From IMG/VR virus record IMGVR_UViG_3300009181_007169: a stretch of DNA of 22,976 nt, one strand, 5' to 3'. Below the pieces are notes generated by a model, which did not search any database, had not been told where the DNA came from, and saw only the letters and a program-made list of their open reading frames with translations. Origin of the DNA: an uncultured virus (IMG/VR IMGVR_UViG_3300009181_007169) (lineage: Duplodnaviria; Heunggongvirae; Uroviricota; Caudoviricetes). Every line of letters begins with the position of its first letter. Position 1 is the stretch's first letter. The position numbers were made by a program, and so were the translations under genes. This document shows, piece after piece, positions 2,671 through 22,558 of this stretch.

Positions 2671-2725
2671 CTGTATATACATATTATAATCAGGATTTGT
2701 TATAAGTGGAAATTCCACAATTTAG

Positions 2726-2750
2726 TTGGATGGGCATTAAGCCCACCCAA
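2726..2750 (-). terminator. hairpin after the KTSC-like gene
   Basis: Minus strand TTGGGTGGGC-TTAAT-GCCCATCCAA (10 bp including one G-U), 5 nt after the stop; no clear U-tract. Confidence 0.5.
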
Positions 2751-2755
2751 TTCTG

Positions 2756-3025
2756 TTAGAAGGTTTCACCTTTTGTTATGTCGAGGTTTCTGAGCCTAGC
2801 ATTGTAAAAAGTACCGATGCTTCCGCCTTCTTTAGCTGTTGCCATAAGTTCGTTTACTACGGAGCTGTCAACTGTCGCGGAGTAAACTGGTTCTCCGCTA
2901 CGCATTTTGAACTTGATTACATTCCCTGTAATCACCATCTTTTCTACGAACGACTCTTCCGGCAGAATCGTGATGAACTTCTTTTTGGATTTGACTCCTA
3001 TTTGGATTGTATGGTTCTTTCCCAT
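2756..3025 (-). CDS. KTSC-domain-like protein
   Basis: ATG supplied by repeat 3023; KMRSGEPVY...V...LM.....SIGTFYNARLR resembles the KTSC pattern. Confidence 0.7.
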   Translation of the reverse strand: MGKNHTIQIGVKSKKKFITILPEESFVEKMVITGNVIKFKMRSGEPVYSATVDSSVVNELMATAKEGGSIGTFYNARLRNLDITKGETF

Positions 3026-3139
3026 ATCTATTATAATCAGGATTTGTTATAAGTGGAAAAAATTTGCCGCCATCCCCTTGGAGGGGGAATGAATTTGTTA
3101 TAACTAGAAAAAAAATAAATGCAATCCCCTTGGAGGGGA

Positions 3140-3427
3140 TTATTTGAGCATTTTTGAAGGACACAATATGATATTTCCAACAATGTCATTGGTTGTTTTC
3201 CAACTTTCCTGATAGATTTTAGTGGCTATCGGATTGATAACATAGTCATCTTTCAGTCTGCCCTCCTCATCACCTATCATAATATTGTCTGCATCATTGA
3301 GATAAATTACCTCAATCATCTCACAGTCAAGTGCTTTGCAAAGCTCGGCAAGAGTAAAGTGGGTTCCGTTGGTTGGCTTGATTGGCTCTAAGGTGCCTTC
3401 TTTATTAAGTAAGAGTGCTGTACTCAT
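3140..3427 (-). CDS. DUF3846-like phage protein
   Basis: Start corrected to the repeat-supplied ATG at 3427; PTNGTHFTLAEL...IEVIYL...DEEGRL...NPIAT...IVGNIILC. Confidence 0.8.
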   Translation of the reverse strand: MSTALLLNKEGTLEPIKPTNGTHFTLAELCKALDCEMIEVIYLNDADNIMIGDEEGRLKDDYVINPIATKIYQESWKTTNDIVGNIILCPSKMLK

Positions 3428-3549
3428 ATCTATTATAATCAGCATTTGTTATAAGTGGAAATTTTTATTTTTATTAAAAATTTTTCCCCCTATTATAATC
3501 AGGATTTGTTATAAGTGGAAATTTGCCGCCGTCGGTCCCCCGGAGGGGA

Positions 3550-3777
3550 TTAATAATCATCGTATGTTTCACCATAGGACTCGTACTCAGCCCTTGTTCC
3601 CATCGGACGACCATGACCGCACTGGTCGCTGTACTTGCTTCGTGCACAATCTGTGCACATGACACCAGCATAAATGCCGTATGAAAATTGAAAGTCAATA
3701 GTTTTTGACTTTTTGTGGCACTCAGGGCAAACGCCCTCATCTAATACTTCTTGGAGATATCTGTATGGCAGACTCAT
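3550..3777 (-). CDS. small putative zinc-binding protein with acidic tail
   Basis: ATG from repeat 3775, stop abuts repeat 3485; CPEC and CTDC motifs. Confidence 0.8.
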   Translation of the reverse strand: MSLPYRYLQEVLDEGVCPECHKKSKTIDFQFSYGIYAGVMCTDCARSKYSDQCGHGRPMGTRAEYESYGETYDDY

Positions 3778-3839
3778 ATCTATTATAATCTGGATTTGTT
3801 ATAACTGGAAAAAACGGGCTGACTTCCCTTTGGAGGGGT

Positions 3840-4100
3840 TAACGACCCAAATAACAATTAAATAGGCTCCAGCAAGCTGAAGCCTTGGAGGTCGTAACCA
3901 ATCAATGTACATCTTATTTGGGAGCAACCCCAAAGAATGAACATCCGTTTGTGGGTGAGAGCATTTTTTTTGGTGTACTGGACTAATCTTGAAATAAACT
4001 GTGTTTATAACAATTTTGCTGTAATTATTACCAATCCGCCCCCAAGGGAGCCGTGTGAGAATTGAACTCACTAAATCCCAGAACTTTAATGCTCTTCCCA
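3840..4100 (-). ncRNA. candidate structured ncRNA with a permuted tRNA-like module
   Basis: Fills a cassette whose repeat lacks the ATG. T-arm GTGAG-TTCAATT-CTCAC (4055-4071), closed acceptor-like stem (4037-4053), terminal stem 4088-4099/3953-3965, G(CUUG)C hairpin (3864-3885). Confidence 0.6.
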
Positions 4101-4205
4101 ATCTATTATAATTTAGATTTGTTATAAGTGGAAAAACTCGCTGGCATCCCCTTGGAGGGGACTCGATTTTCGAATTATTCGATTTTTTTGATTCTGCCAC
4201 CGCTT

Positions 4206-4397
4206 TTAAGCGAGGGCAATAACACGGAAACCAGCTATTCGATTTCCATTATCCAATAAAATAGTATGAACATTGTGAGGCTTTTCACAGTTCAACTCTT
4301 CGCCTAAATGGTTAAACATTGACACAATCTGAGCAGTTGCCCTGTCACCTGAGTATTTTTGGTATTTGATTGAATCTCCTGGTTTCAATGCTTTCAT
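4206..4397 (-). CDS. small SH3/KOW-like protein
   Basis: ATG from repeat 4395; N-terminus MKALKPGDSIKY resembles 9085-9318 and 12934-13107. Confidence 0.8.
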   Translation of the reverse strand: MKALKPGDSIKYQKYSGDRATAQIVSMFNHLGEELNCEKPHNVHTILLDNGNRIAGFRVIALA

Positions 4398-4478
4398 ATA
4401 TATTATAATCTGGATTTGTTATAAATGGAAAAAACGGGCGGCGATCCCCTTAGAGGGGGAATCCTCTAAGATTTACTT

Positions 4479-4745
4479 TTAGAAGGGCAAGTCCATAGCT
4501 ATACTATCTAAGTGCTTAGTATACCTAATGCGGTCTTCTTCGCACATGGTCTTGCTAATCAAGTCCAGGATTTTGGAGTTGGACATAGGTGGGTGGGTGC
4601 GAACCATCGAATTACCTGACGAAGAAAAATCTGCGATAAGTTCATCGCTCTCGTCGTATACGCACAGGAAGTATTCCTGCAATGGTCGGTCGTAGCCAAA
4701 AGCCATTTCAAGTCCGTCTGTGGTAGTTGCAGTATATCTACTCAT
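4479..4745 (-). CDS. hypothetical phage protein
   Basis: ATG from repeat 4743; GYDRPLQEYFL motif. Confidence 0.85.
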   Translation of the reverse strand: MSRYTATTTDGLEMAFGYDRPLQEYFLCVYDESDELIADFSSSGNSMVRTHPPMSNSKILDLISKTMCEEDRIRYTKHLDSIAMDLPF

Positions 4746-4807
4746 ATCTATTATAATCAGATTGTGTTATAAGTGGAAAAAACGGGCTGGCATCCCTCTG
4801 GAGGGGA

Positions 4808-5515
4808 TTATTTATGAAGTTGCACAAGAAGGGACTCTAAACAATCAATGTCTGGTTTTTTTTCCTTAATTGAGCTGGGTAAATCTTCAAACATAATTTT
4901 TAAGTCTTGAATACCTTTTTCAATACCTTCTTCATGTTCTCTAATAAATTCTAAAGTAATATCTTCAATAGGCATGAGCTTAATTGACATCAGCTTATCA
5001 TGTAAAGATTGTGAGTAGTCTTTAACTACTGGTTCAAAAGTTCCAGTATTTAGGAGCTGGTCAGCTTGTGCCAATACTCTGTAAGCGGCGACAATCGACT
5101 TAGGTATTCTTCTTAAAGTGTTATCTTCGAATGGTTGTTGAGCATTTCTTAAATATCTTTTTAGTTGTGCTTCGGCGTAACCAATATGAGCTAACAAAAT
5201 CTTTCTTCCATCAAAAGCATAGTTAGGAATCATTCTGAGCATTTCTGAAAAATTATTCTTTTCATAAATTGGGGATTTAATAACTTCATACATGGTAGGA
5301 TTTCCTGAGGTGAGATGCTTAACAAAGTTTCTCAGCTCCCATGATTCAGTGTCTTCACCATTAGCTGATGCTGTTTTGGTATTGCTGTTGTTGAATGGCG
5401 ATACCAACTCTCTTATTGATAATCTGTAGATAAATCTAGCATCTTCATCAGACTGTGGCGTAGACAGACCGTGCATTTTACTTCCTACAGTTGCTTTGTA
5501 AATGATTTCGCTCAT
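4808..5515 (-). CDS. RlaP/YcgL-type nucleotidyltransferase (Pol-beta superfamily)
   Basis: Start corrected to the ATG at 5515 in repeat 5513. VGSKMHGLSTPQSDEDARFIY carries the GS..G....SD.D motif; WELRNFVKHLTSGNPTMYE is typical of the family. Confidence 0.85.
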   Translation of the reverse strand: MSEIIYKATVGSKMHGLSTPQSDEDARFIYRLSIRELVSPFNNSNTKTASANGEDTESWELRNFVKHLTSGNPTMYEVIKSPIYEKNNFSEMLRMIPNYAFDGRKILLAHIGYAEAQLKRYLRNAQQPFEDNTLRRIPKSIVAAYRVLAQADQLLNTGTFEPVVKDYSQSLHDKLMSIKLMPIEDITLEFIREHEEGIEKGIQDLKIMFEDLPSSIKEKKPDIDCLESLLVQLHK

Positions 5516-5580
5516 ATATCTATTATAATCAGATTGTGTTATAAGTGGAAAACACGGGCTGGCATCCCCCTGGAGGGGGA

Positions 5581-5793
5581 TTATTCCTCCTCCGCTGGTG
5601 GTGTGGCTAGTTCTACCTTGATTGCGTCCCATTGCTTTTGCGTGAAAATCACAAGGTCTTCACGGTGCAATGAATCAACATCGTTCTCAAAAGTCTCATC
5701 AAACCAAAGGTGCAAAGTTGCGGTTGACGATTCCACGCTATCAACCCTGCAATGGGCAGGGATTGGCACAAAATTTGTTTCTCGTTCAGTCAT
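5581..5793 (-). CDS. hypothetical protein
   Basis: Exactly fills the space between repeats 5791 and 5513. Confidence 0.8.
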   Translation of the reverse strand: MTERETNFVPIPAHCRVDSVESSTATLHLWFDETFENDVDSLHREDLVIFTQKQWDAIKVELATPPAEEE

Positions 5794-5863
5794 ATCTATT
5801 ATAATCAGATTGTGTTATAAATGGAAAAAACGGGCTGGCATCCCCCTGGAGGGGGATTGTGCA

Positions 5864-6034
5864 TCAATAGTCTCCATAATCGTCGTTGTCATATTGCTCA
5901 TCCATAAAGCAACAATTCTCTTCGTGTGTGTTGTAGTCGCCAGTGGCACATTGCATAGCGTCCCAATCACCGTATTCGTCATAGCCATAGTCGTAGTCTG
6001 ATTCTGTGTAATCGAAATAATCTTCTGGGTCCAT
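5864..6034 (-). CDS. very acidic Tyr-rich small protein (56 aa, not in ORF track)
   Basis: ATG from repeat 6032: MDPEDYFDYTESDYDYGYDEYGDWDAMQCATGDYNTHEENCCFMDEQYDNDDYGDY. Confidence 0.8.
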   Translation of the reverse strand: MDPEDYFDYTESDYDYGYDEYGDWDAMQCATGDYNTHEENCCFMDEQYDNDDYGDY

Positions 6035-6114
6035 ATCTATTATAATCTGGATTTGTTATAAGTGGAAAAAACGGGCTGCCATCCCCTTGGAGGGGGAATT
6101 GGTAAAGTGCTGAG

Positions 6115-6187
6115 CCTCTCCAAGAGGACTCGAACCTCCGACCCATTGCTTAGAAGGCAATTGCTCTTTCCACTGAGCTATGGAGAG
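6115..6187 (-). tRNA. tRNA-Arg(UCU)
   Basis: CTCTCCA/TGGAGAG acceptor, ATTGC-CTTCTAA-GCAAT, GGAGG-TTCGAGT-CCTCT; no encoded CCA; TGTATAAT just upstream. Confidence 0.95.
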
Positions 6188-6210
6188 GCTCAATCTCTAT
6201 AAATTATACA

Positions 6211-6345
6211 CTAAACTTCACAATCTAAAGTGCCTAGTGCCCAATTGTCATCAGAAACATCACAACATTGGTCACTATATTCATAATCATCTTCAAAGAA
6301 ATTAAGGACTAACCGAGAGTAAACGAAGTCATCTTCTGGGTTCAT
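6211..6345 (-). CDS. acidic small protein (44 aa, not in ORF track)
   Basis: TAATG overlap with the upstream stop; MNPEDDFVYSRLVLNFFEDDYEYSDQCCDVSDDNWALGTLDCEV; N-terminus resembles 5864-6034. Confidence 0.6.
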   Translation of the reverse strand: MNPEDDFVYSRLVLNFFEDDYEYSDQCCDVSDDNWALGTLDCEV

Positions 6346-6539
6346 TACCAATCACCTCGTGTTACATTGCGAGCTTCTGCACGATTATTACGACGTTCAG
6401 CTTTGCGTGAACTTTTATTGTGTATGCCAAAGCCTGAGTAACTTTGGTGACCAGTAGGTTGAAACATAGCCACTTCAACAATAGCTGTTTTGCCATTCAT
6501 TGTGATTGTCTTTTTGATTGTAGCTTTCTTTTTGCTCAT
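6345..6539 (-). CDS. small basic protein
   Basis: ATG from repeat 6537; K/R-rich. Confidence 0.8.
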   Translation of the reverse strand: MSKKKATIKKTITMNGKTAIVEVAMFQPTGHQSYSGFGIHNKSSRKAERRNNRAEARNVTRGDW

Positions 6540-6601
6540 ATAAATTATAATCTGGATTTGTTATAACTGGAAAAAACGGGCTGCCAACCCCCTGGAGGGG
6601 G

Positions 6602-6814
6602 TTACATACCTACCTTTTCCCAATATGGGTCATAAGCAAAAGCGATGTCATACCATTGACCGCCTTCTACTTGATTGGTAAAAGTAGTGATGTACAGGTC
6701 TTTCTTATACTTATTAACGATTGGGGTAGTTATTTCGTTAATTGGGACATAAAGGTCACTTTGCCAATTTTTGATAGTTGTGCCAGTTTCTTTGATTTCT
6801 TGATAGATGCTCAT
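6602..6814 (-). CDS. hypothetical phage protein
   Basis: Likely start at ATG 6814 (ATGA overlap with the upstream stop); WQSDLYVP...WYDIAFAYDPYW; stop abuts repeat 6537. Confidence 0.8.
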   Translation of the reverse strand: MSIYQEIKETGTTIKNWQSDLYVPINEITTPIVNKYKKDLYITTFTNQVEGGQWYDIAFAYDPYWEKVGM

Positions 6815-7008
6815 TTTTGTATTTTTCTCCACACTTGGTCAATAATATATCCTACAATCGGAGCCACTATTGAAAAAGTCATAGCTGTTTTTAGCCAATA
6901 AAGGGCGGCTTCTGGATGCGATGGCATACAAGCCAAAGCACACGTGAGAGGAAGAAAACCCGCAAGTGCCGATATAACTATGAGTGATTCTTTTGCTGAT
7001 TTGGTCAT
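6811..7008 (-). CDS. small two-TM membrane protein
   Basis: ATG from repeat 7006; two hydrophobic segments. Confidence 0.8.
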   Translation of the reverse strand: MTKSAKESLIVISALAGFLPLTCALACMPSHPEAALYWLKTAMTFSIVAPIVGYIIDQVWRKIQK

Positions 7009-7070
7009 ATCTATTATAATCTAGATTTGTTATAACTGGAAAAAACGGGCTGAGATCCCTTTGGAGGGGG

Positions 7071-7403: not shown

Positions 7404-7494
7404 ATCTATTATAATCTGGATTTGTTATAAATGGAAAAAACGGGCTGACATCCCCTTGGAGGGGATTGGGCGAATTTCGCCCGAATGATTTCAT

Positions 7495-7800: not shown

Positions 7801-7805
7801 ATCTA

Positions 7806-8009: not shown

Positions 8010-8078
8010 ATCTATTATAATCAGATTGTGTTATAACTGGAAAAACGGGCTGGCATCCCCTTGGAGGGGGATTGTTCT

Positions 8079-8597: not shown

Positions 8598-8659
8598 ATC
8601 TATTATAATTAGAATTTGTTATAACTGGAAAAAATGGGCTGGCATCCCCTTGGAGGGGC

Positions 8660-9084: not shown

Positions 9085-9318
9085 CTAATCTATTGGACTA
9101 ACTTGATAAGCCCAACCCCAATGACCATTGTCAAGGTCAAAAATAAAACTATGACCATCTTCAAGTTTAGAAAAATTCATTTCTTCAACAGAAGTGCCAT
9201 TGTGTTTATTACCTTGAGAAACACCTGCAACAATACCAGTAACTTTAGCCACTACTGGAGCATTTTGACCCCAGCCTCCTTTGTAAATTACTTTGTCTCC
9301 TACTTTAATTGTTTTCAT
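9085..9318 (-). CDS. small SH3/KOW-like protein
   Basis: ATG from repeat 9316; MKTIKVGDKVIY...DLDNGHW. Confidence 0.85.
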   Translation of the reverse strand: MKTIKVGDKVIYKGGWGQNAPVVAKVTGIVAGVSQGNKHNGTSVEEMNFSKLEDGHSFIFDLDNGHWGWAYQVSPID

Positions 9319-9380
9319 ATCTATTATAATCAGATTGTGTTATAACTGGAAAAAACGGGCTGGCATCCCCCTAGAGGGGG

Positions 9381-9623
9381 TTATCCTTCATCCTCATTAT
9401 TTTCATCATCCTCCAAAACAATAGCCCAGAGTACCATATCTGCACCTTCATCGTCAATAGGTGGCATTGCATTAAATGAAGCCCAATCCATGTCTAAGAA
9501 TTTCCAATCATTTTTACTGTATGGTAAATCGGTTTCAGGGTTGATGTCTACATCTTCTTTGACAAAAATATATTTTGGAAGTTTTGAGTAAAATTCATTG
9601 TGCTTGATTGTTCTTAGTTTCAT
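9381..9623 (-). CDS. acidic hypothetical protein
   Basis: Exactly fills the space between repeats 9621 and 9316. Confidence 0.85.
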   Translation of the reverse strand: MKLRTIKHNEFYSKLPKYIFVKEDVDINPETDLPYSKNDWKFLDMDWASFNAMPPIDDEGADMVLWAIVLEDDENNEDEG

Positions 9624-9718
9624 ATTTATTATAATCAGATTGTGTTATAACTGGAAAAAACGGGCTGACATCCCCTTGGAGGGGGATTGGAGCTGGAAAC
9701 AGGACTCGAACCCGCGAC

Positions 9719-10120
9719 CTAGTTTCTCTGCGACCTTCCCTTCCCACGGTTTGAATTCTTATATGTTGGTGTCAAAGAATCACAACATCCACATAATAAT
9801 CTTAAATTTGATTCTGTATTGTTTTTCCAATCACCATCAATATGGTCAGCAACTAATGGAACCTTTCCAGTATATATATTGAGTTTAGACCAACCACATT
9901 GAATACACTTGTTGTCAAACTTTTCGCGTAAATAACGCTTTACATGTGAATTCACATTACCTAATGCGTTCAATCCATCAACATCGCCACATTTCCACTG
10001 TCTGATATAATCGGCATACTGCCAATCTAATTGACATTGTTGACAACAGTATTTATTAGGTTTTCGTGGCACAGGCTTACCACAATGCAGGCAAGGTTTT
10101 TGTTCTACTCTTCGACTCAT
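9719..10120 (-). CDS. HNH endonuclease (putative free-standing homing endonuclease)
   Basis: CIQCGW...VPLVADHIDGDWKNNTESNLRLLCGCCDSLTPTY plus N-terminal CLHC...YCCQQC; inserted inside a tRNA gene. Confidence 0.9.
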   Translation of the reverse strand: MSRRVEQKPCLHCGKPVPRKPNKYCCQQCQLDWQYADYIRQWKCGDVDGLNALGNVNSHVKRYLREKFDNKCIQCGWSKLNIYTGKVPLVADHIDGDWKNNTESNLRLLCGCCDSLTPTYKNSNRGKGRSQRN

Positions 10121-10173
10121 AATAGAGTCTTATGTAGTAGACCATCTTTCACCTGCATTATGGTCTACAAATC

Positions 10174-10255
10174 TGGAGCCGAGTAGGAGAATCGAACTCC
10201 TTCTGATTTCTCGGTAGTTTACAAAACTACTGCTATCCCAATTAGCGAACTCGGC
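10174..10255 (-). tRNA. tRNA-Thr(UGU) with extended variable region
   Basis: GCCGAGT/ACTCGGC acceptor, GTAGT-TTTGTAA-ACTAC, 12-nt variable region, AGGAG-TTCGATT-CTCCT, T-CCA. Confidence 0.85.
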
Positions 10256-10288
10256 TTACTTGCTCTATCGCTGAGCTAATCCAGCTTA

Positions 10289-10363
10289 TGGCTGACACCA
10301 TAGGATTCGAACCTATAACCCCTTCGTTAACAGCGAAAAGCTCTACCGTTGAGCTAGGTGTCA
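10289..10363 (-). tRNA. tRNA-Asn(GUU)
   Basis: TGACACC/GGTGTCA acceptor, TTTCG-CTGTTAA-CGAAG, ATAGG-TTCGAAT-CCTAT, G-CCA. Confidence 0.95.
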
Positions 10364-10369
10364 GTATGT

Positions 10370-10445
10370 TGGCGACCCATGAGGGGATTGAACCCTCCGT
10401 CTCCGCCGTGACAGGGCGGCAACTCCACCAGTTGTCCTATGAGCC
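10370..10445 (-). tRNA. tRNA-Asp(GUC)
   Basis: GGCTCAT/ATGGGTC acceptor, CCGCC-CTGTCAC-GGCGG, T-loop TTCAATC, G-CCA. Confidence 0.95.
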
Positions 10446-10774: not shown

Positions 10775-10978
10775 TTACACAATCTGATGGTTTTTAAGAT
10801 ATTTTTTCACATATTCATCAACTTCTTCACTTGTGGGCTTTTCATAGAATGGCTCACCTAAACTTATACAATCATTATCGAGGTACAATTCATAATAGCA
10901 AGTATCATCTTCTTCAATGAAGTCTATTTCAATGATATACCCTACAACATTTTGTATTCCTACAGAAGTTTGTCTCAA
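10775..10978 (-). CDS. acidic hypothetical protein
   Basis: TTG start 1 nt after the upstream stop, with GGAG before it; stop abuts repeat 10710. Confidence 0.7.
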   Translation of the reverse strand: MRQTSVGIQNVVGYIIEIDFIEEDDTCYYELYLDNDCISLGEPFYEKPTSEEVDEYVKKYLKNHQIV

Positions 10979-11299: not shown

Positions 11300-11650
11300 T
11301 TACGTCACCACCATTTCACACACTACAGAAGTGGAACAGATTCCTCTTTGAATTTGGGTGCCTGAGTTAACAAATGGGCTTTTAACCTTTACCTTTGCAG
11401 TACCTTCAGGTAGCAAATAAGTATTTGCTGAAACAAAATCTTTATGTGAAGTTTCAACTCGGCTCTTCCCAATGCTGGTGTTCCATTGAGAATTTTTCTG
11501 GCGAGACGAGATTAGCTTGTTTCTCTTATCATAGTAGAACACTTCGCTTTTAGCTTCACCAGTGGTGAGATAATTTTCGATTTCGTTAATTTGTTCTTTA
11601 AGGAACAGATGAGTTGTGATTGCTTTTTGATATAGTTTTGATGTTGGCAT
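11300..11650 (-). CDS. basic hypothetical protein (leadered)
   Basis: Repeat 11707 lacks an ATG at the usual position; AAGGA-AAAAACT-ATG at 11650 gives MPTSKLYQ... Confidence 0.7.
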   Translation of the reverse strand: MPTSKLYQKAITTHLFLKEQINEIENYLTTGEAKSEVFYYDKRNKLISSRQKNSQWNTSIGKSRVETSHKDFVSANTYLLPEGTAKVKVKSPFVNSGTQIQRGICSTSVVCEMVVT

Positions 11651-11786
11651 AGTTTTTTCCTTGTACCAATCTTTACCAGAATCTTTTGGCTGTCTGAAAG
11701 CGGGTACATTTATTATAATCTGCATTTGTTATAACTGGAAAAAATCTGCTGCCGCCCCCTTGGAGGGGGTATGATACACTAAAATT

Positions 11787-12933: not shown

Positions 12934-13107
12934 TTAGAAAAATACTAAATCTTTTCTCATAATATTTTCAAAATGTTTTTCGATTTTACAAACATAAATT
13001 TCGTATTTTCCAGACCACATATCTACTACAACCAGTTCTTTACCATGTAAATTTTTTCTAACAGAACCAATATACTTTACTTTATCTCCACGCTTAAATG
13101 TTTTCAT
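12934..13107 (-). CDS. small SH3/KOW-like protein (57 aa, not in ORF track)
   Basis: SD AAGGAG then MKTFKRGDKVKYIG...RKDLVFF; stop abuts repeat 12868. Confidence 0.75.
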   Translation of the reverse strand: MKTFKRGDKVKYIGSVRKNLHGKELVVVDMWSGKYEIYVCKIEKHFENIMRKDLVFF

Positions 13108-13687
13108 TTTTTTCTCCTTGAATTAGTGAATTATAACCCTTTAACACTTGAGTGCCTAGCCATACATCATAAGAAGCTGTATGAGCCAAATCATCATTCA
13201 CTTCTACGCCAAAATACTTTGCCATGTTACTAAGTGATAAAGATTGTTCTATTGGAATAATCCCAAGCATCTTAAAGTTATTGCCTAAAGTAGTAAGTTC
13301 AATTGGATTGCGTACAGTATTCATATCCCATGCTTTTTGTGAGATTGTGTATTTTGTAATCAATTCAATATCTCTTTTTATGCCGTTGCCAAATGGCAGA
13401 AGTTTACCATACTTTTCTTTTGATTCTGAGAGCCAATTAAAAATAATTCTTTTTGAATCCCTGTAAGGTATTGCTTCTAAATCATGCTTACCTAAATCAA
13501 TACCATTAACACGTAATGCTTCACCTTGAACAAAAAATTCTGTGCGAGAATCAACTGGGTCTGGTTTTACCTTCAAATCTAAAGTGCTAACGATTTCATA
13601 ATTCTCAACAATACTCAATGTTAGCGTGAGTAGGTCGTAATCTGTGGTAATCCCACCTGATTCTGTATCAATTCCTAAAAGTGTCAT
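13094..13687 (-). CDS. DEDDh (DnaQ-like) 3'-5' exonuclease
   Basis: Start corrected to ATG 13687; ExoI GIDTESGG, ExoII GNGIKRD, ExoIII AHTASYDV. Confidence 0.85.
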   Translation of the reverse strand: MTLLGIDTESGGITTDYDLLTLTLSIVENYEIVSTLDLKVKPDPVDSRTEFFVQGEALRVNGIDLGKHDLEAIPYRDSKRIIFNWLSESKEKYGKLLPFGNGIKRDIELITKYTISQKAWDMNTVRNPIELTTLGNNFKMLGIIPIEQSLSLSNMAKYFGVEVNDDLAHTASYDVWLGTQVLKGYNSLIQGEKNENI

Positions 13688-13806
13688 ATATATTATACGC
13701 TCAGATTGTGAAACCTGGAAAAACAATCTGAAGTTTGTGTAAGGGGTTTGTCAACCCCCTACACAAAATTTTTTGAAATATTTGGTTAGATTATAGCGTT
13801 GCCAAC

Positions 13807-14929: not shown

Positions 14930-15418
14930 TCAAAATAGCCCCCCAATCCACGTTCCCTTATAATCTGCAAATTCTTTGTTGAACTCTTCAGAAAGTGTTT
15001 GTTTAGCTGAAATCTCATCCCAATCCACACGATTTTCAAATTCGCGAATGAACTCTTCAGACAGTTTTTGATATCCTGAAATTTTCTCCCAATTCACAAG
15101 GTCTTCGAACTCACGAATGAACTCTTCAGACAATGTTTGGTATTCTGAAATAAAATACCAATTCACACGACCTTTGAACTCACGAATAAAATCCTCAGAC
15201 AGTGTTTGGCAAGATGAAATCCAACGCCAATTTAACCTATCTTTGAATTCACGAATGAACTCTTCAGACAATGTTTGGTAGTATGAAATCTCATTCCAGT
15301 CCACACTGTCTGCATATTTACGAATGAAATCCTCAGACAGTTTTGGATGTTGTGAAATTTGTTTCCAGCCCACACGGGGTGTCACAGTATATTTATCGAT
15401 TAACTCTTGATCGGTCAT
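14930..15418 (-). CDS. tryptophan-repeat protein, last repeat frameshifted
   Basis: Six 22-aa (66-nt) units W..IS.YQ(T/K)LSEEFIREF...V(N/D); a further unit continues in another frame to TAA 14877-14879. Confidence 0.9.
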   Translation of the reverse strand: MTDQELIDKYTVTPRVGWKQISQHPKLSEDFIRKYADSVDWNEISYYQTLSEEFIREFKDRLNWRWISSCQTLSEDFIREFKGRVNWYFISEYQTLSEEFIREFEDLVNWEKISGYQKLSEEFIREFENRVDWDEISAKQTLSEEFNKEFADYKGTWIGGLF

Positions 15419-15479: not shown

Positions 15480-15638
15480 TTATCTGGTGATAACAATTTT
15501 GGCATCTTCAATCTTGCTTTTTTTAATCCAAGATTTTAGAGCTTTTTCAGCTTGTTGAATACTAGGATATTCTAGTTTATAGTCATGCCCATTGCAAGTA
15601 AATCTTAACAAACAAGGTCTAGCATTAGGATGTGGCAT
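15480..15638 (-). CDS. small hypothetical protein (52 aa, not in ORF track)
   Basis: GAGGTGG-AAA-ATG; MPHPNARPCLLRFTCNG...KIVITR; stop abuts repeat 15416. Confidence 0.65.
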   Translation of the reverse strand: MPHPNARPCLLRFTCNGHDYKLEYPSIQQAEKALKSWIKKSKIEDAKIVITR

Positions 15639-15897
15639 TTTCCACCTCTAATCTTATTGCTTTTCCATTTTCCCATCGATAATTAACCTCATCACCTGAA
15701 ACACATGGAGCATAGAACTTTACCAAAGTCCATCGCCCTTTAAGATCTTTACAATATTCCTCGCATTCTTCTTGTGTGGAAAACCTTAAACCATTGGTGC
15801 TGTAATCATAGGAATCTGTCGTCACATAGGGAGCCCACGATTTTCTCTGACCTTGGGCGTTCAAATTTTCGATTTCTTTTAATGTTTTATATGTCAT
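15625..15897 (-). CDS. hypothetical phage protein
   Basis: ATG from repeat 15895; NGLRFST.EE...Y..DL..RW...VNYRW. Confidence 0.85.
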   Translation of the reverse strand: MTYKTLKEIENLNAQGQRKSWAPYVTTDSYDYSTNGLRFSTQEECEEYCKDLKGRWTLVKFYAPCVSGDEVNYRWENGKAIRLEVENATS

Positions 15898-16800: not shown

Positions 16801-16809
16801 ACTCGTGAC

Positions 16810-17121
16810 TTACGCTACTTGGACACTCCCAGAGATTTTGTCGCAAGTAACAATTAGGTTACTGGTTCTGAGACCAAACTTGTAAGCTGGAACCCGAATG
16901 GCTCCATCTTTTTCGATTGTGTAGGTATGGTCGTATTTAACGCCATTTTCTACTGGGACGATAGTCACAGACCCCGTTCCAAGCACAGCAACCTTTTGAC
17001 CTGGTTGAAAGCCAATATGTCGAGTGCCAGCTACTGGAATTCTCACACGGGTGCGTGAGCCAGTCTTGGAATTGAAGTCTACTGCGAATTTGTTAAGTGT
17101 GTGATTAAACATTTTTTTCAT
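16810..17121 (-). CDS. tandem AbrB/SpoVT-like putative DNA-binding protein
   Basis: RVRIPV....GFQPGQKVAV...SVTIVP and TIEKDGAIRVP..FGL; leadered with SD AAGGAG. Confidence 0.6.
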   Translation of the reverse strand: MKKMFNHTLNKFAVDFNSKTGSRTRVRIPVAGTRHIGFQPGQKVAVLGTGSVTIVPVENGVKYDHTYTIEKDGAIRVPAYKFGLRTSNLIVTCDKISGSVQVA

Positions 17122-17216
17122 TTCTCCTTGAGTTGTTTCTTACACCTATTATAATTGGGATTTGTTATAAGTGGAAAAAATTTGCCGCCACCCCCTTGGA
17201 GGGGGTTTTGACCATT

Positions 17217-17864
17217 TCACTCTAAAACATGTGACCAATAACGGGAATCAGATTGTTGTTGTTTTTTATCCCAAAAAATACAACGTGCAATATAGGGTGA
17301 TGATTTAAGCATTTTTGAACGTTCAATCCAATCTTGTTCGTACTTTTCATAAGCAACTTTTTCCTTCTTACTTGTAAATGATTTTTCAATCATACCATAT
17401 AACTTAATCATGTGAGTATCTAAACAAACAATTTCAGCTTCGCTTGGATAACACATTTCAAGAGTAAATGATACTTTAGCCATTCCAATACCTTTGCAAC
17501 GATTGACCAAACGATTTCGAAATTCTATCCAAGTCTCTTCTTTGCCTTGATAGAATTCTTTGGAGTTAGATATAAAATCTTGAGTGAAATTCCAAATAAA
17601 CTCTTGTCTCTTATTTTGCATACCACATCTTGAATCATGCAACTTTTGACCAAGTTTTTCCTTATCATCAATCCATTCGTCAAAATTCTTAATTGCGTTA
17701 TATCCGCGAACATTTCCAGCCCAAGTGGTATGTATTGAAGTGTATGCAAAAAGCCAGCGCCTCAGCACCTCAGAGTCTGTTTTGGGTGATATACACTTCC
17801 AGTATTTTGTGTAGTCATTGATTTCTTTCTTTGAAATATTCTTAAAAACAGTATCAATTGTCAT
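17217..17864 (-). CDS. HhH-GPD superfamily DNA glycosylase, Ogg2-like
   Basis: Start corrected to ATG 17864; RNRLVNRCKGIGMAKVSF...IVCLDTHM...YEKYE resembles the Ogg2 pattern R..LV...KGIG.KEAS...IIDRH...Y..IE. Confidence 0.75.
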   Translation of the reverse strand: MTIDTVFKNISKKEINDYTKYWKCISPKTDSEVLRRWLFAYTSIHTTWAGNVRGYNAIKNFDEWIDDKEKLGQKLHDSRCGMQNKRQEFIWNFTQDFISNSKEFYQGKEETWIEFRNRLVNRCKGIGMAKVSFTLEMCYPSEAEIVCLDTHMIKLYGMIEKSFTSKKEKVAYEKYEQDWIERSKMLKSSPYIARCIFWDKKQQQSDSRYWSHVLE

Positions 17865-17932
17865 ATCTATTATAATCACGATTTGTTATAAGTGGAAAAA
17901 ATCGAGCTGTTGCCCTTTCAGAGGGGGAATTG

Positions 17933-18004
17933 TGGGAACACTGGGATTCGAACCCAGAACTTACTGGTTAAAAGCCAGTTACTCTACCATTGAGTTATGT
18001 ACCC
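17933..18004 (-). tRNA. tRNA-Lys(UUU)
   Basis: GGGTACA/TGTTCCC acceptor, ACTGG-CTTTTAA-CCAGT, CTGGG-TTCGAAT-CCCAG; no encoded CCA; own TATAAT ~15 nt upstream. Confidence 0.95.
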
Positions 18005-18085
18005 ACAATTCTATCTTTAATTATACGCTAAAAATGTAAATTGAATTGTTATATTTTTGTAATGATGTTTAAATTCAGAAATTTT

Positions 18086-18460: not shown

Positions 18461-18522
18461 ATTTAATATAATTAAATTTTGTTATAATTGGAAAAAATCT
18501 GCCGCCGATCTCTTAGAGGGGG

Positions 18523-18550
18523 AATCACAACTATTTTTTTAGTTGTGATT
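18523..18550 (-). terminator. hairpin after ardC
   Basis: Perfect 11-bp inverted repeat AATCACAACTA/TAGTTGTGATT. Confidence 0.5.
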
Positions 18551-18558
18551 CTTATCAA

Positions 18559-19410
18559 TTAAGCTGTAGCCTCTTGAGTTTTAACACCAAGAATATAGTC
18601 TACGGCTTTTTGGGCTTTATTGGCACTACTCACAATCATTTCAGGATTATTCTTAAATGCTTTCATCCAGTTTTGTATGTAAGCTGAAGAATTTTCTAAA
18701 GTGTTATCAATTCCAGCGTGGTTACAAAGAAACGCAGAAGCAAACTCGGCAATCAATTCTTCTTCACTATACTGTATAGTACCGAAAGAATCAAAATTGG
18801 CTACACCTTTACGATTTAAGCGTTTTTCATGACCAGTGGAGTGAGCATATTCATGAAACAATGTAGAGTAAAATTCTTCTGTGCTAAGGAATTGTGCTTT
18901 AGGTGGCATTTTTACCTTATCTTCAACAGGAGAATAACAAGCAAAAGAATGACTGAATAATGTTACAGGTTTATCGTTATAGTTATTAACGATTTCTTCA
19001 GCTTCGATAATCTCAGCTTTTCTAAGTGCTTCTAATTTCTCAATATCTTCTTTTGAAAACTCAATACCGTCAGTTTGTTCAATGTTAAAAACATTAAAGT
19101 ATTTGAGTAGTGGGATATTTTTCTTCTTGCCATCTTGTTCTTTACTCAAGATATTCCAGAACACAATCTGCTTGGACTTTTCACCCTTCTTAACTTCACC
19201 TCCAAGTTCTTTGACTTGACGATAGGTGAGCCAACGTTCATCAACGTAGCCTGATGCTGATAGAATAAAAAAGTTGATGCCAGAATACTTGCGATTGGTC
19301 AAGCCATTTCTAGGCGTGGAGTTTTTCCAAGGTTTTCTCCAGGGAATAACACCTTTTTCCAAAGATTCCATAATTTGATTGAATACCGCTTCGTGTGCAA
19401 TTGATTTCAT
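18559..19410 (-). CDS. ardC: ArdC-family antirestriction protein (ssDNA-binding domain + zincin-like domain)
   Basis: IPWRKPW, N..T.RKYSGIN, WLTYRQ..ELGG.VKKGEK, FNVFN..Q, YSTLFHEYAHSTGH..RLNR, YSEEELIAE. Confidence 0.93.
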   Translation of the reverse strand: MKSIAHEAVFNQIMESLEKGVIPWRKPWKNSTPRNGLTNRKYSGINFFILSASGYVDERWLTYRQVKELGGEVKKGEKSKQIVFWNILSKEQDGKKKNIPLLKYFNVFNIEQTDGIEFSKEDIEKLEALRKAEIIEAEEIVNNYNDKPVTLFSHSFACYSPVEDKVKMPPKAQFLSTEEFYSTLFHEYAHSTGHEKRLNRKGVANFDSFGTIQYSEEELIAEFASAFLCNHAGIDNTLENSSAYIQNWMKAFKNNPEMIVSSANKAQKAVDYILGVKTQEATA

Positions 19411-19491
19411 ATCTATTATAATTAGAATTTGTTATAACTGGAAAAAATTTGCCGCCATTCCTTTGGAGGGGGAATTTATCCTCCAAAGGAA

Positions 19492-19965
19492 TTAGTCAGA
19501 ATTCATACTTTGAATTTGCTCAATGATTTCTTCATCAGATAGACCTTGGTTTTCAACCACCCAATACTTTTCATCTAGCCAATCAAGACCTTCAGGGTCT
19601 CCATCTTCAATCAATCCCTGTATCATTTCATCCAAATCTTTAGTGATAATTGTATAAGAATGAAGCTCTATTTCATCTTCTACTTTGATAGGAACCTCAA
19701 GGTATCTACAAGGATATTTGTACCCCATAAAATCAATTGTTTCGGGGAACAATGAGACATGAGATAGAGCTTCATTGTAAGCTCCAAAATCTTGAGACGA
19801 AACATAAAGGTGAAACCGATTTGTTTCTGAATTATACTCAAAAATCCCAGCTAGGATGCCATTGATACGAATATCTATTGCAGGATAAGGTGTGTCGCCA
19901 CCCAAGGTAGCGGTGATGGCTCCTGCTGGAGTTTGTTGGACGATTTCAGTAACTGTTTCATTCAT
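19492..19965 (-). CDS. acidic hypothetical protein
   Basis: ATG from repeat 19963. Confidence 0.85.
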   Translation of the reverse strand: MNETVTEIVQQTPAGAITATLGGDTPYPAIDIRINGILAGIFEYNSETNRFHLYVSSQDFGAYNEALSHVSLFPETIDFMGYKYPCRYLEVPIKVEDEIELHSYTIITKDLDEMIQGLIEDGDPEGLDWLDEKYWVVENQGLSDEEIIEQIQSMNSD

Positions 19966-20053
19966 GTATATTATAATAAGAATTTGTTATAACTGGAAAA
20001 ATAAAGGCGGCGGCGCCTTCGGAGGGGGTTTCCCCCCTCCTCACACAATCTGA

Positions 20054-20692
20054 TTAGGCAGAAAACACAATCTGAGCCTTTAATGGTCTCTTGTAGAAAC
20101 CAAAGGTGGTATCATTTGTAGAAGGGTGCACAGTGGCATTAAATTGCACTTTGTCGCCCACTTTGACATCATTAGCAATATTAGATGGTATTGAACCAAA
20201 CACAGCAAAATCACGCTCGTCTAGAACAATCATCTTAGTGGCGAAACCTATATTTTCATCACCATACACTTTAATTTTTTGAACAGTGCCTTTAATGATA
20301 TCTCTGCCTTCTACAGCGGTTCCAGTACGTGTACTTACAGGCATTGGCTCAGGTAGATTTACACGAGCTGGTAAGCCTTCAATACCATATTTCGAATTAT
20401 AGGCTTGTGCCTTCTTGTAAATTTCATCCTCGATTTGTACAAGTAATCTTTTGCCTGTAAACCACTTTGGGCTTTTTCTGAGCTGTTTGGTGATTGACCA
20501 ATGCTGTTCAATCTTTTCATCAAGAATGAATGCACCTTTTAGGCAAAAACGCATTGCACCTCGGATTTTGCCATCTGAACACATTACATAGGTAACATAT
20601 CTACCTCTAGCACCGCAATGTGGACAGTTGTCATCTCGTATTTCGGTTTTGTTGGTGATGTAAAGAGCAAAATGTGGTTTTTGTTTTTCCAT
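20054..20692 (-). CDS. Zn-ribbon + OB-fold-like protein
   Basis: CPHCG...C...C N-terminus; C-terminal EGR..IKGTVQKIK...KMIV...VFGSIP...KVGDKVQFNATV...FGFYKRP. Confidence 0.75.
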   Translation of the reverse strand: MEKQKPHFALYITNKTEIRDDNCPHCGARGRYVTYVMCSDGKIRGAMRFCLKGAFILDEKIEQHWSITKQLRKSPKWFTGKRLLVQIEDEIYKKAQAYNSKYGIEGLPARVNLPEPMPVSTRTGTAVEGRDIIKGTVQKIKVYGDENIGFATKMIVLDERDFAVFGSIPSNIANDVKVGDKVQFNATVHPSTNDTTFGFYKRPLKAQIVFSA

Positions 20693-20726
20693 GTCTAATA
20701 TAATCAGATTGTGTTATAACTGGAAA

Positions 20727-21272
20727 TTAGGATTCATGTTTCTCCCAACCTTCACCTGAACTCCAAATCCCATCGGGATACCAGCTCAAAAATTCATCTT
20801 TTGAACAGTTGATTTCATTTCTGTCGTAATCCCAACCTGTTACCAAATCATCATAACAAGCTATAAAAAACGATTGCTGAATATCTCCTTCCCAATTTGT
20901 GAGAACAACAGCTTGAGAATAGTCAATTCGATTAAGCATTTCCTCGGTAGTAAGTAGCTCACCAGATGCGGAATTTGTTGGCATTGGTAGTTCTACTACT
21001 ATTATATTATCGTTTACTACAATTTCTAAACCATAATCTACTTCATCAATCACCAAGAAATTTCTGTCCTCGATTTTGCCTAGCTCAAGCTCGAAAATGT
21101 CCTTTTCACTTGTGAATTCGATATTTGGGTGGTAAAGCTCATAGTACTCTTCAATGTCTTCCCATCCTGCAATAGCATCCCATCTCTTTTGGTTGATTGG
21201 TGTAATGCCATAGTATGCTACGAGGTGTCGTATGTCTTCAAATCTTCTTATGTTTATTGCTTCTGTTATCAT
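20727..21272 (-). CDS. acidic hypothetical protein
   Basis: ATG from repeat 21270 (5-nt gap); C-terminal module shared with 21929-22492. Confidence 0.85.
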   Translation of the reverse strand: MITEAINIRRFEDIRHLVAYYGITPINQKRWDAIAGWEDIEEYYELYHPNIEFTSEKDIFELELGKIEDRNFLVIDEVDYGLEIVVNDNIIVVELPMPTNSASGELLTTEEMLNRIDYSQAVVLTNWEGDIQQSFFIACYDDLVTGWDYDRNEINCSKDEFLSWYPDGIWSSGEGWEKHES

Positions 21273-21307
21273 TGTCTATTATAATCTGTATTTGTTATAA
21301 GTGGAAA

Positions 21308-21427
21308 TTAGTTTTCTCGATTATCAAAGAAACAATCTCCTAGAATTTCAAAGAAAAAAAACACCAACCACACAATCGCTATGGAAGTTGCAAGTGAGAG
21401 TAAAAGAAAAATGCTAAAATTAAGCAT
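21308..21427 (-). CDS. small single-TM protein (39 aa, not in ORF track)
   Basis: GAGGA upstream; MLNFSIFLLLSLATSIAIVWLVFFFFEILGDCFFDNREN; stop abuts repeat 21270. Confidence 0.55.
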   Translation of the reverse strand: MLNFSIFLLLSLATSIAIVWLVFFFFEILGDCFFDNREN

Positions 21428-21638
21428 TCATTTCCTCAATTCTAGTGTTTATAAATGTCACCTCACAGTTGAAATCAAGTGGATTTGTTAGCGTTCCAGC
21501 ATCATCAAAAGCAATAGCTGGATGTAGTTCCAGCGAACTCATAGTGAGATAGTAGGGAATTCCATTATGGTCTTCCCCAAGTTCAACGTGGTCAGGCACA
21601 TCTACAATAGTCTCAAGAGTGATTTTAATTTGTTTCAA
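21420..21638 (-). CDS. hypothetical protein
   Basis: TTG start with GGAG upstream; overlaps the upstream stop. Confidence 0.7.
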   Translation of the reverse strand: MKQIKITLETIVDVPDHVELGEDHNGIPYYLTMSSLELHPAIAFDDAGTLTNPLDFNCEVTFINTRIEEMNA

Positions 21639-21861
21639 GGTCTATGCTCCATGTACAAGAGGTGTTGCCAGTGTTAATAGCAAAGTAGGGGTGACCGTCA
21701 TCAAGAACATCGTTATCGTCCTCATCTGAAATTTCAAGTTCCATTTCTATGCCGTAGAATTCTTCAATGCTAACATCGTTGAAAGTAAGGTGGCATTTTA
21801 GTTGTTCTTTGGAAAGGTTATTAAGTGCTGTTTTTAGGTCTTCGAATGTTTTTAATCTCAT
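21625..21861 (-). CDS. acidic hypothetical protein
   Basis: ATG from repeat 21859. Confidence 0.85.
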   Translation of the reverse strand: MRLKTFEDLKTALNNLSKEQLKCHLTFNDVSIEEFYGIEMELEISDEDDNDVLDDGHPYFAINTGNTSCTWSIDLETN

Positions 21862-21928
21862 ATCTATTATAATTGTGTTTTGTTATAACTGGAAAAAATC
21901 GGGCGAAAATTGCTCGATTTTCATTCAG

Positions 21929-22492
21929 TTATTGTCTCCTTGAACTTGAAAACGGCTTGGGGGTGACTGGGCGGTCCTTGGGACCGAAGCTGTTCTGCTT
22001 AGGAGTTCCTTTGGGTTTTGACTTGTTTTCATCTACTTCCTCTACAATCTGTCCTATAATAATTGATAACTGCATGACTATGAATGATAGCACAGATAAT
22101 GATAATAATAGGAACCCAGCACAATTACCTATTTCAAATACAAACTTTGGTGTATTAAACAAGAGCGGATTAAGAAATACTAAAACAAACCCTATAAATA
22201 AAGAAAGTGCAAATGAGAAAGCCCAAACACAACCAGCCTTGTTGGTAATTTTTTGATAATCTGGCTTCCACTTTATTCGCCTTTCCCATTTTGCATCTGA
22301 ATACAATTCTAAAAATTCCTTTCTAGACATTACAAATTTATTTCCATCGGGATCTAAACCATACACCTCTTCTTCACGGCAACCAAGACTGTATAAACGT
22401 CTCAAAGTCCCACCTAAGAGAGTAACGTCTTGACAGTCTGGGCGATTTTGAATTCGATTAAGTATCTGCTCTGTAGTAAGTAATTCATTCAT
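21929..22492 (-). CDS. chimeric membrane protein
   Basis: ATG from repeat 22490; N-terminal module resembles the C-terminus of 20727-21272, two-TM module resembles 22559-22849. Confidence 0.85.
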   Translation of the reverse strand: MNELLTTEQILNRIQNRPDCQDVTLLGGTLRRLYSLGCREEEVYGLDPDGNKFVMSRKEFLELYSDAKWERRIKWKPDYQKITNKAGCVWAFSFALSLFIGFVLVFLNPLLFNTPKFVFEIGNCAGFLLLSLSVLSFIVMQLSIIIGQIVEEVDENKSKPKGTPKQNSFGPKDRPVTPKPFSSSRRQ

Positions 22493-22558
22493 GCTTATTA
22501 TAATTGTGTTTTGTTATAGCTGGAAAAAATCGGGCGAAAATTGCCCGATTTTCTTCAT

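Follow-up and report, generated by a model that had tools for sequence, protein, structure and literature searches.

Integron arrays combine attC sites and the integrase IntI with promoterless cassettes that are read from one common promoter, and the promoter sets of phages T7, T3 and SP6 co-vary with their polymerases. In T4-type phages, the cassettes known as PeSLs (promoter-early stem-loops) join a stem-loop to a sigma-70-like promoter and end in a Shine-Dalgarno sequence and an ATG, according to the Fig. 3 legend of Comeau et al. 2014 (PMC4122927); the passages of Arbiol et al. 2010 (PMC2839356) and of PMC4122927 that deal with PeSLs describe them as clustered in hyperplastic regions, with promoter and terminator activity shown, and as recombining into minicircles. 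The present analysis concerns a stretch of 22,976 nucleotides (nt) from an uncultured virus of the Caudoviricetes (IMG/VR record IMGVR_UViG_3300009181_007169), referred to as the window at its full length, in which a short repeated element separates a long series of small genes. Comparison with two related genomes suggested that the repeat is probably a composite regulatory and recombination cassette, PeSL-like and leaderless, in the early hyperplastic region of an uncultured freshwater jumbo phage; its transcript starts, terminations and crossovers are those that we infer from the sequences.

The core pattern TATTATAAT-N4-TTNTGTTATAANTGGAAA, searched on the + strand with at most three mismatches, gave 40 matches of 31 nt within positions 2682-22526 of the window, all 40 of them on the + strand, against a mean of 0 in 100 dinucleotide shuffles. 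These promoter cores, in a single orientation, head the cassettes of the array, whose genes are on the minus strand, and a repeat search gave the same families as the core scan with the similarity extended to 65-98 nt. The 40 copies in one orientation that a sequence-only reading of the window had reported were thereby confirmed. The end of the array, which that reading had placed at 22551, lies farther on: the window is 99.94-100% identical to the 54-kilobase (kb) metagenome contig Ga0304730_1000199 (window position = contig position + 2592), on which the array continues past the window end over a further 5.4 kb or more; the 28.4 kb of contiguous sequence contain 48 copies. Two further contigs were 100% identical to the window over the compared overlaps.

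In gene direction, a unit consists of the stop codon of the preceding gene, a hairpin CCCC(C)TCC-A(A)-GGGG, 9-11 nt (GATGYCAGCCCG or GRYGGCGGCAAA), a T-run, TTTCCA, an 18-base-pair (bp) spacer that contains TTATAACA in the phage of the window, TATAAT, AGAT and the ATG. A representative full unit on the minus strand is located at 9316-9384, where the stop codon of the gene at 9381-9623 is followed by the hairpin CCCCCTCTAGGGGG, by GATGCCAGCCCG and T6, and then by the promoter, with TTTCCA at 9352-9347, the 18-bp spacer, TATAAT at 9328-9323, AGAT, and the ATG at 9318-9316. The ATG had been described as the end of each copy, and it was found exactly 3 nt past the core in 33 of the 40 copies (4 nt, 5 nt and 1 nt in one copy each), with four copies having no ATG at the usual place (17177-17147, 4134-4104, 3521-3491 and 2712-2682). 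Stop codons within 0-3 nt of the CCCCTC end had also been described; with a conservative gene set, the upstream stop was 0-1 nt from the C-run in nine of the 34 hairpin-bearing copies, and the examples at 3140, 8660 and 10775 agree with the listed open reading frames (ORFs).

Elements of the same architecture were found in two relatives when these were scanned for the repeat. G001 (IMG/VR IMGVR_UViG_3300042879_006196; 347,392 bp, 33.6% G+C, 99% complete by CheckV), found by a protein-guided scan, carries 77 copies, all forward and none reverse, which are dense at 34-68 kb and sparser at 1-34 kb, with three at 320-336 kb. G002, a 62-kb fragment with the array end in its first 3.5 kb, carries 8 copies. 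The consensus in G001 is CCCCCTCCAAAGGGG-AGGCAG(CCCG/ATTG)-T-run-TTTCCAGGTTTAACA-N8-TTATAATAGATATG, and G002 has a third variant, TTTCCA-NN-TTTCACA-N7/8-GTATAATA-GAT-ATG, preceded by CCCC-N4-6-GGGG. TTTCCA, TATAAT(A) and the GAT-ATG spacing are invariant over the three genomes, while the spacer differs and has its own fixed variant in each genome. The earlier description of two TATAA-type boxes per copy did not survive this comparison, in which the upstream box reads TTTAACA or TTTCACA in the relatives; judged by the three genomes, it is a genome-specific spacer box and not a conserved promoter element. An archaeal TATA box was rejected for the upstream box on the same grounds, as was a true -10 box, for which nothing conserved was found 17 bp upstream of it either.

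The 3' two-thirds of the repeat are predicted to be a sigma-70-type promoter, since TTTCCA-18-TATAAT scored 10 of 12 against TTGACA/TATAAT in 38 copies, and 9 of 12 in one more, in a consensus scan. The alignments of orthologues of element-led genes start at residues 1-3 in 15 of 18 cases, and over codons 2-9 the orthologues gave 42 identical, 26 synonymous and 76 non-synonymous codon comparisons, in which MTLLGIDTESGG was kept through four synonymous changes. This conservation of the orthologues, which begins at codon 2, marks the ATG beside the element as a real start codon. Shine-Dalgarno motifs (GGAG, GAGG or AGGA at -20 to -4) were found on none of 44 element-led genes in the window phage and none of 50 in G001, compared with 10 of 20 and 17 of 51 internal genes, respectively, and leadered copies of the same promoter bear AAGGAG. 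Therefore the host uses Shine-Dalgarno sequences, and the element-led genes do without them. The lack of such a sequence together with an ATG that abuts the promoter suggests that the messenger RNAs (mRNAs) should have no leader or a very short one, of no more than about 4 nt, since TATAAT ends 4 nt before the ATG.

Cassette content and order were compared between the phages, with orthologues defined as reciprocal best hits against G001 (E < 1e-8) for the genes of the window plus the adjoining 5.4 kb. Reciprocal best hits were obtained for 31 of the 64 genes and form a collinear backbone at 34.9 to 68.6 kb of G001, broken by many cassette insertions and deletions and by several transpositions; the gene for the RlaP-type nucleotidyltransferase, for example, lies at 49 kb in G001, whereas the window phage and G002 have it near the end of the array. 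Adjacent orthologue pairs that no element separates stayed adjacent in three of three cases, versus two of 11 for pairs separated by an element (Fisher p = 0.027). G002 and G001, at 72-94% amino-acid identity, share permuted blocks: the 3.5 kb of G002 maps to G001 at 50.6, 49.2, 62.8, 60.8, 61.3 and 60.4 kb and is collinear from 70.5 kb. All three block starts that reach intergenic DNA lie close to TTTCCA (1, 9 and 1 nt), the homology blocks run as far as the next ATG, and adjoining blocks have their overlap within the promoter core. Content and order thus differ between related phages, with block junctions at the repeat, which is what the sequence-only reading had proposed to look for. Furthermore, a 316-nt cassette just past the window is duplicated in tandem at 94.6% identity with the repeat at its ends, and the window cassette at 13094-13687 bears a promoter of the G002 type.

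The promoter copies themselves follow the genome and not the gene. In the window phage, 46 of 48 copies have NTTATAACA as the diagnostic 9-mer after TTTCCA, and in G001 the 9-mer is GNTTTAACA in all 78 copies. Cores that precede orthologous genes are 79.2% similar across genomes versus 79.8% for non-orthologous pairs, within-genome similarity is 85.2% and 90.6%, and the variable spacer showed no orthologous signal across genomes (permutation p = 0.91). This pattern suggests that the copies evolve in concert, either because they exchange sequence, or because genes repeatedly re-pair with promoters, or because the copies track a changing trans-acting factor. A dedicated recombinase was also sought. 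Tyrosine recombinases (PF00589) gave no match in the 99%-complete G001, with the control matched in 14 of 14 genomes, no serine recombinase was found in G001, and no integrase or recombinase was found in the window, as the sequence-only reading had stated of integrases. G001 encodes RecA-like, RecJ, SbcCD-like and PD-(D/E)XK proteins, and its three TnpB genes lie away from the array.

The likeness to PeSLs extends over most of these properties. In both systems a stem-loop lies just upstream of sigma-70-like -35/-10 boxes, with a spacer of about 17 bp in PeSLs and 18 bp here, and the cassette ends at the start codon of the next gene. Both lie between small ORFan genes of a hyperplastic early region, vary slightly in sequence between phage lineages, are tied to insertions, deletions, replacements and displacements between related phages, and include degraded half copies, with no dedicated recombinase known. 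Unlike PeSLs, which end in a Shine-Dalgarno sequence and an ATG, the element described here has no Shine-Dalgarno sequence and, by prediction, no leader, and places TATAAT 4 nt from the ATG, and its T-run is not directly behind the stem-loop. The array is also more uniform and more tightly packed, with 48 copies in 28 kb (and 77 in G001), and is confined to a single strand, and the phage is not demonstrably T4-like, the core genes of G001 comprising a DnaE-type replicase and a Mu-like portal; a search for Gp23 gave no match but was uninformative, as its positive control matched nowhere. T4-like accessory genes (RnlA, denV and DNA ligase) are present on the contig of the window phage. Promoter and terminator activity and minicircles have been shown for PeSLs, whereas the functions of the element described here are predicted from sequence. 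A search of open-access text, limited in extent, turned up the PeSL papers but no report of a leaderless variant.

Of the 48 copies of the window phage, 34 contain a C-run module, as do 44 of the 78 copies of G001, and 71 of the 78 C-run copies form a hairpin of 4 bp or more; the C4/G4 stem is kept in G002 with different loops. The common hairpin is no canonical terminator. With a canonical intrinsic terminator defined as a G+C-rich hairpin with a U-tract within 0-2 nt, only the variant modules at 21896-21925, 22527-22556 and 3122-3142 qualified; a consensus terminator scan of the gene strand called almost none of the common hairpins, and the gap between hairpin and T-run differs from copy to copy. 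A weak hairpin of another kind (GGG...CCC), ending 1 nt short of the T-run, is possible in 21 of 31 copies of the window phage, 16 of 41 in G001 and 4 of 6 in G002. The two hairpins are mutually exclusive, as the G-run can pair either with the C-run or with the downstream CCC. By analogy with PeSLs, the hairpin may, tentatively, be regarded as an attenuator or a 3'-end element.

Searches for an enzyme that might read the promoter were carried out on G001. An RNA polymerase beta subunit (PF00562) was not detected, Pfam scans found no polymerase domain among the 166 ORFs of at least 200 amino acids, and three giant ORFs compared with PDB sequences gave no polymerase match; T7-type RNA polymerase (PF00940) was likewise not found, a weak negative because the positive control matched nowhere. 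Two sigma-70-family ORFs scored above the Pfam cut-off and a third below it. One of them, a gene for a 195-amino-acid protein at 320340-320987, has an element-like promoter (3 mismatches) 28 nt upstream, and the others lie at about 120.0 kb (the second) and about 319.2 kb (the weak third). The position of a sigma gene behind an element-like promoter suggests that the element acts first and fits a cascade in which the host polymerase reads first. In the window, the 9-mer ACACAATCT occurs at 26 sites on both strands versus 0.36 expected; 13 of these coincide with the commonest promoter spacer, and the other 13 fall outside promoter spacers and cluster at the array end (examples are 2243-2624, 20043-20073 and 10777-10785). 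Many G001 copies have its reverse complement just upstream of the -35 box, which produces an inverted repeat around the -35. This 9-mer may be a putative regulator-binding box.

If the PeSL-like reading is correct, TTTCCA-18-TATAAT would most likely be read by the host RNA polymerase straight after infection, each small gene would be transcribed on its own as an mRNA that is leaderless or has a leader of at most 4 nt, and the hairpin behind the previous stop codon would probably attenuate read-through or stabilise the 3' end. Some 50-80 near-identical, co-oriented copies, a few hundred bases apart, would provide dispersed homology for the phage's own recombination machinery, and recombination between copies would lead to cassette gain, loss, duplication and reordering and to homogenisation of the copies, with no dedicated site-specific recombinase involved; the same mechanism has been proposed for the PeSLs of T4-type phages. 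The proposal that the repeat both expresses its cargo and serves as a crossover substrate is partly supported and largely right in kind: what the genomes show when compared agrees with a cassette of the PeSL type for expression and shuffling; the comparison with integrons that accompanied it fails.

Several points weigh against this reading. Flank covariation was not significant (15 of 23 versus 12.6 expected; 236 of 2000 shuffles came out at least as high), the folding of whole units was not better than that of shuffles (z -0.1 to -0.8), and the common hairpin is small, with the T-run 9-11 nt from the stem. The gap of only 4 nt from the -10 box to the ATG is unusually short, and start-site selection of the E. 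coli type would tend to begin the transcript at the G of the ATG, so that the start codon would be lost. Only three genomes were compared, of which G002 has just 3.5 kb of array, the adjacency test covers 14 gene pairs only, and the genome-specific spacer boxes could reflect co-evolution with a trans-acting protein and not gene conversion. In addition, the intergenic DNA is the element alone; therefore rearrangements that spare genes must break there, and the position of a junction is by itself no proof that the element causes exchange.

This last point leads to a rather unlikely alternative, that the repeat amounts to an early promoter with a stem-loop, used again and again, without a causal part in recombination, and that the turnover is ordinary early-region plasticity in which selection keeps genes whole. 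Junctions would then have to fall in the element in any case, the statistics are thin (14 gene pairs and 6 blocks), and in one population variant the difference is a TnpB insertion that lies within a cassette gene and not at a repeat, so not all population variation sits at repeats. A promoter that is merely reused does not, however, agree with copies that lack an orthologous signal, are more alike within than across genomes and have diagnostic bases fixed per genome, a pattern for which either the copies must exchange sequence or genes must be paired with promoters anew, time and again; nor does it agree with neighbouring homology blocks that overlap inside the promoter core or with a tandem cassette duplication bounded by repeats. 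The fixed spacer bases could instead be attributed to a phage-specific protein (a sigma factor, an injected polymerase or an early regulator) that reads or controls the element through the spacer box or ACACAATCT, an explanation that we consider unlikely. The spacer box (TTATAACA, TTTAACA or TTTCACA) is invariant within each genome and differs between genomes, and host sigma-70 is not expected to need an invariant spacer box; as in the T7, T3 and SP6 promoter sets, all copies of one genome have bases in common that are different in a related phage. Such a protein might also account for transcription that starts as close as 5 nt to TATAAT, and in its favour are the sigma-70-family ORFs of G001, several ORFs of 1,000-4,000 amino acids without annotation, the excess of ACACAATCT and the inverted repeat around the -35. 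Unlike the T7, T3 and SP6 sets, however, the hexamers are sigma-70-like and no phage polymerase was detected; the parts conserved in the three genomes are exactly these hexamers, G001 yielded no RNA polymerase subunit, and the sigma gene itself stands behind an element-like promoter.

The short distance to the ATG bears on whether the genes are leaderless at all. Either initiation occurs unusually near the -10 box, or translation proceeds from read-through RNAs, in which case leaky hairpins would allow read-through transcripts to carry the ATGs and the A/U-rich promoter would serve as an initiation region free of Shine-Dalgarno sequences. A canonical start-site distance would put +1 on or after the G of the ATG, and the hairpins are not canonical terminators. 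The genes closest in arrangement are the leaderless genes of Deinococcus-Thermus treated in PMC12340547, which likewise have a -10 motif directly before the start codon and no ribosome-binding site, with the mRNA predicted to start at or next to the AUG; in the validated Deinococcus genes, however, the motif is about 6-7 bp upstream of the ORF according to the Fig. S1 legend, versus 4 nt here, and the arrangement is presented there as a property of the host genomes, whereas here it belongs to one repeated phage cassette with a -35 box and a stem-loop. That longer distance counts in favour of read-through. Nevertheless, read-through as the source of translation appears improbable, as the same phages use strong Shine-Dalgarno sequences where a gene has no element or has a leader, and the spacing from the -10 box to the ATG is nucleotide-exact in 33 of 40 copies and in all three genomes, which read-through does not need and which favours initiation close to the box. 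An integron-like system, with cassettes moved into and out of the repeats by a site-specific recombinase, deserves almost no credence. The array does resemble one in its single orientation, its short cassettes each bounded by a repeat, and its empty and half cassettes, and the sequence-only reading had drawn this analogy; however, every defining feature is missing, as there is no IntI and no tyrosine or serine recombinase in the near-complete relative or in the window, the repeat (a hairpin of 4-9 bp and a promoter) holds no attC structure or attC-like long imperfect palindrome, and each cassette has its own promoter.

A more elaborate version of the PeSL-like cassette, which we regard as distinctly doubtful, would make it a self-contained module for leaderless expression, ribosome-sensing attenuation and recombination. 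In this version the start 5 nt past TATAAT, a non-canonical choice of start site, might be imposed by a phage factor that reads the spacer box or ACACAATCT, a ribosome ending the upstream gene could cover the C-run so that the RNA switches to the CCC-paired weak terminator, and the copies could recombine actively enough for genome-wide homogenisation. Such translation-coupled termination would explain the stop codons 0-3 nt from the C-run. Should the PeSL-like reading itself hold, the principle of a portable promoter and stem-loop that insulates small genes and links modular shuffling would not be peculiar to T4-type phages, and would recur, stricter and leaderless, in an unrelated freshwater jumbo-phage lineage. 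The 50-80 near-identical units would then offer a compact system for the expression of dozens of orphan early genes without ribosome-binding sites, for start-site selection 5 nt from a -10 box, and for the way in which scattered regulatory repeats promote gene turnover and undergo concerted evolution. For annotation, the element is of practical use as a marker of true start codons and of early genes in jumbo-phage contigs that lack annotation.

Several copies depart from the common layout, all on the minus strand. The copy at 13692-13721, TTTCCAGGTTTCACAATCTGAGCGTATAATA, which heads an exonuclease-like gene (13094-13687), is a variant full promoter of the type used by G002. Where three partial copies had been counted, this variant full copy was found and one half copy, at about 3091-3145, with a hairpin at 3122-3142, an adjacent T-run, TTATAACA at 3103 and no -10 box, running straight into the next full unit. 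The empty cassette that had been noted near 3485 was also found (3431-3521), with the cores at 3431-3461 and 3491-3521 lying 60 nt apart with an A/T-rich filler and no ORF. At 16810-17207, the core 17147-17177 is followed by GGTGTAAGAAACAACTCAAGGAGAA and by the ATG at 17121 of the gene at 16810-17121, a leadered arrangement that is conserved in G001. In the leadered copies (window 17147-17121; G001 46754, 59989 and 62132; G002 2540), TATAAT is followed by (A/G)TG-TAA-GA, that is, a start codon and then a stop codon, and a Shine-Dalgarno sequence and the real ATG lie about 20-25 nt beyond. The region at 11300-11741, with the core at 11711-11741, probably holds a second leadered copy, because the orthologue alignment starts at residue 22 of the ORF at 11300-11725; the gene there probably starts at an internal ATG near 11650 that is preceded by AAGGA.

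Other copies differ in the hairpin module. A canonical terminator (ATCGAGC...GCCCGAT and T6; fold z-score -5.9) replaces the C-run hairpin at 21865-21925, with a twin at 22496-22556, and the copy at 20696-20726 has no hairpin module, its upstream stop codon TAA abutting TTTCCA, as is also the case at 21277-21307. At 3839-4134, some 262 nt that lack the ATG in its usual place come after the promoter copy 4104-4134, and a canonical terminator closes the stretch. This stretch (fold z -2.6) has one frame open throughout, with a TTG near the 5' end, and it gave no Rfam match and had no counterpart in G001 or G002; it may be a candidate small RNA or a TTG-start ORF.

The cargo consists mostly of orphan small proteins. 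Annotated cargo on the minus strand includes an ArdC-like anti-restriction protein (18559-19410), the RlaP-type nucleotidyltransferase (4808-5515), an HNH endonuclease (9719-10120), an Ogg-like protein (17217-17864), a DUF3846 protein (3140-3427) and the exonuclease-like protein at 13094-13687. Cassettes with several genes or with RNA genes had been reported and were recovered: three two-gene cassettes without an element between the genes lie on the minus strand at 15480-15897, 12934-13687 and 6602-7008, each pair being adjacent in G001 as well, and one minus-strand cassette (10174-10445) holds the transfer RNA (tRNA) genes for tRNA-Asp, tRNA-Asn and tRNA-Thr. With tRNA-Arg (6114-6187) and tRNA-Lys (17932-18004), also on the minus strand, the window has five tRNA genes. 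The recurrence of paralogous cargo was borne out by families D9, D10 and D13 of the repeat search. A large paralogous family of proteins with 23-residue repeats and a 69-nt period (phrog_3532), several of them element-led, has members in the window at 14930-15418 and 520-975, at contig loci L026 and L027, and at 70-76 kb in G001.

A tRNA CCA had been placed at 9688. A CCA-ending, tRNA-like 3' half (T-arm, acceptor strand and CCA) does abut the hairpin at 9688-9733 on the minus strand, without being a tRNA called by ARAGORN or Rfam. A tRNA-like 5' half (acceptor and D-arm) is located at about 10262-10290, some 530 nt upstream of the 3' half, and the complete tRNA-Thr and the HNH endonuclease gene sit between the two halves. 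An intron-containing tRNA at 9688-10290 was rejected, since ARAGORN with introns allowed found none and Rfam gave no split-tRNA call.

No cultured phage close to the window phage was found. Megablast of the window against a phage collection gave no match, and a window-specific motif had no match in IMG/VR; a looser 16-base motif matched there only in isolation, once per locus, and these matches were taken for chance. A generic motif found arrays in IMG/VR in G001 only, plus about a dozen single matches, and in genome contigs gave 15 single matches in unrelated taxa, with no host clue. Among relatives of ArdC and DnaE none reached 60% identity (the best rows listed were 44% and 37%), so no cultured relative or host emerged, and L157, a relative at 44% identity of one cargo protein, was without such an element. 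G001 is classed as a provirus in IMG/VR, though it is 99% complete with no integrase or serine recombinase found, and it carries two Hsp70 genes, DnaJ, GroEL, many sugar-nucleotide and glycosyltransferase genes and the three TnpB genes.

Part of the stretch is present in 24 public runs, five DNA runs among them covering at least 74% of it; four runs (one RNA and three DNA) were examined as Logan contigs, which end at repeats. The joints listed for these contigs are ambiguous, as most have sides of 25-37 nt that lie inside repeats. In one RNA run and one DNA run, contigs join sequence like 16810-17071 to 13084 onward (sides of 61 and 77 nt), with ends that are not at a repeat, which suggests a strain whose exonuclease gene has another downstream neighbour. 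The population variant with the TnpB insertion (L030, contig Ga0209086_10051972), 98.7% identical, has 1.35 kb inserted inside a cassette gene at contig position about 22718, beyond the window end; the insertion encodes a 392-amino-acid TnpB-like protein (OrfB_IS605, Cas12f1-like TNB).

Farther along contig Ga0304730_1000199, seven more exact-pattern copies were found, one of them directly before an ATP-dependent DNA ligase gene, and the remaining contig encodes RNA ligase 1, a denV-like glycosylase, a phosphoribosyl pyrophosphate (PRPP) synthase homologue, LRR proteins and repeat proteins. At the array end within the window, a cluster of ACACAATCT boxes and of G/C homopolymer runs occupies 2243-2624, and G or C runs of 7-12, such as TAGGGGGGGGTGG, occur at 2400-2660. 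A similar G-run context precedes an orthologous small gene in G001, at about 68.1-68.6 kb.

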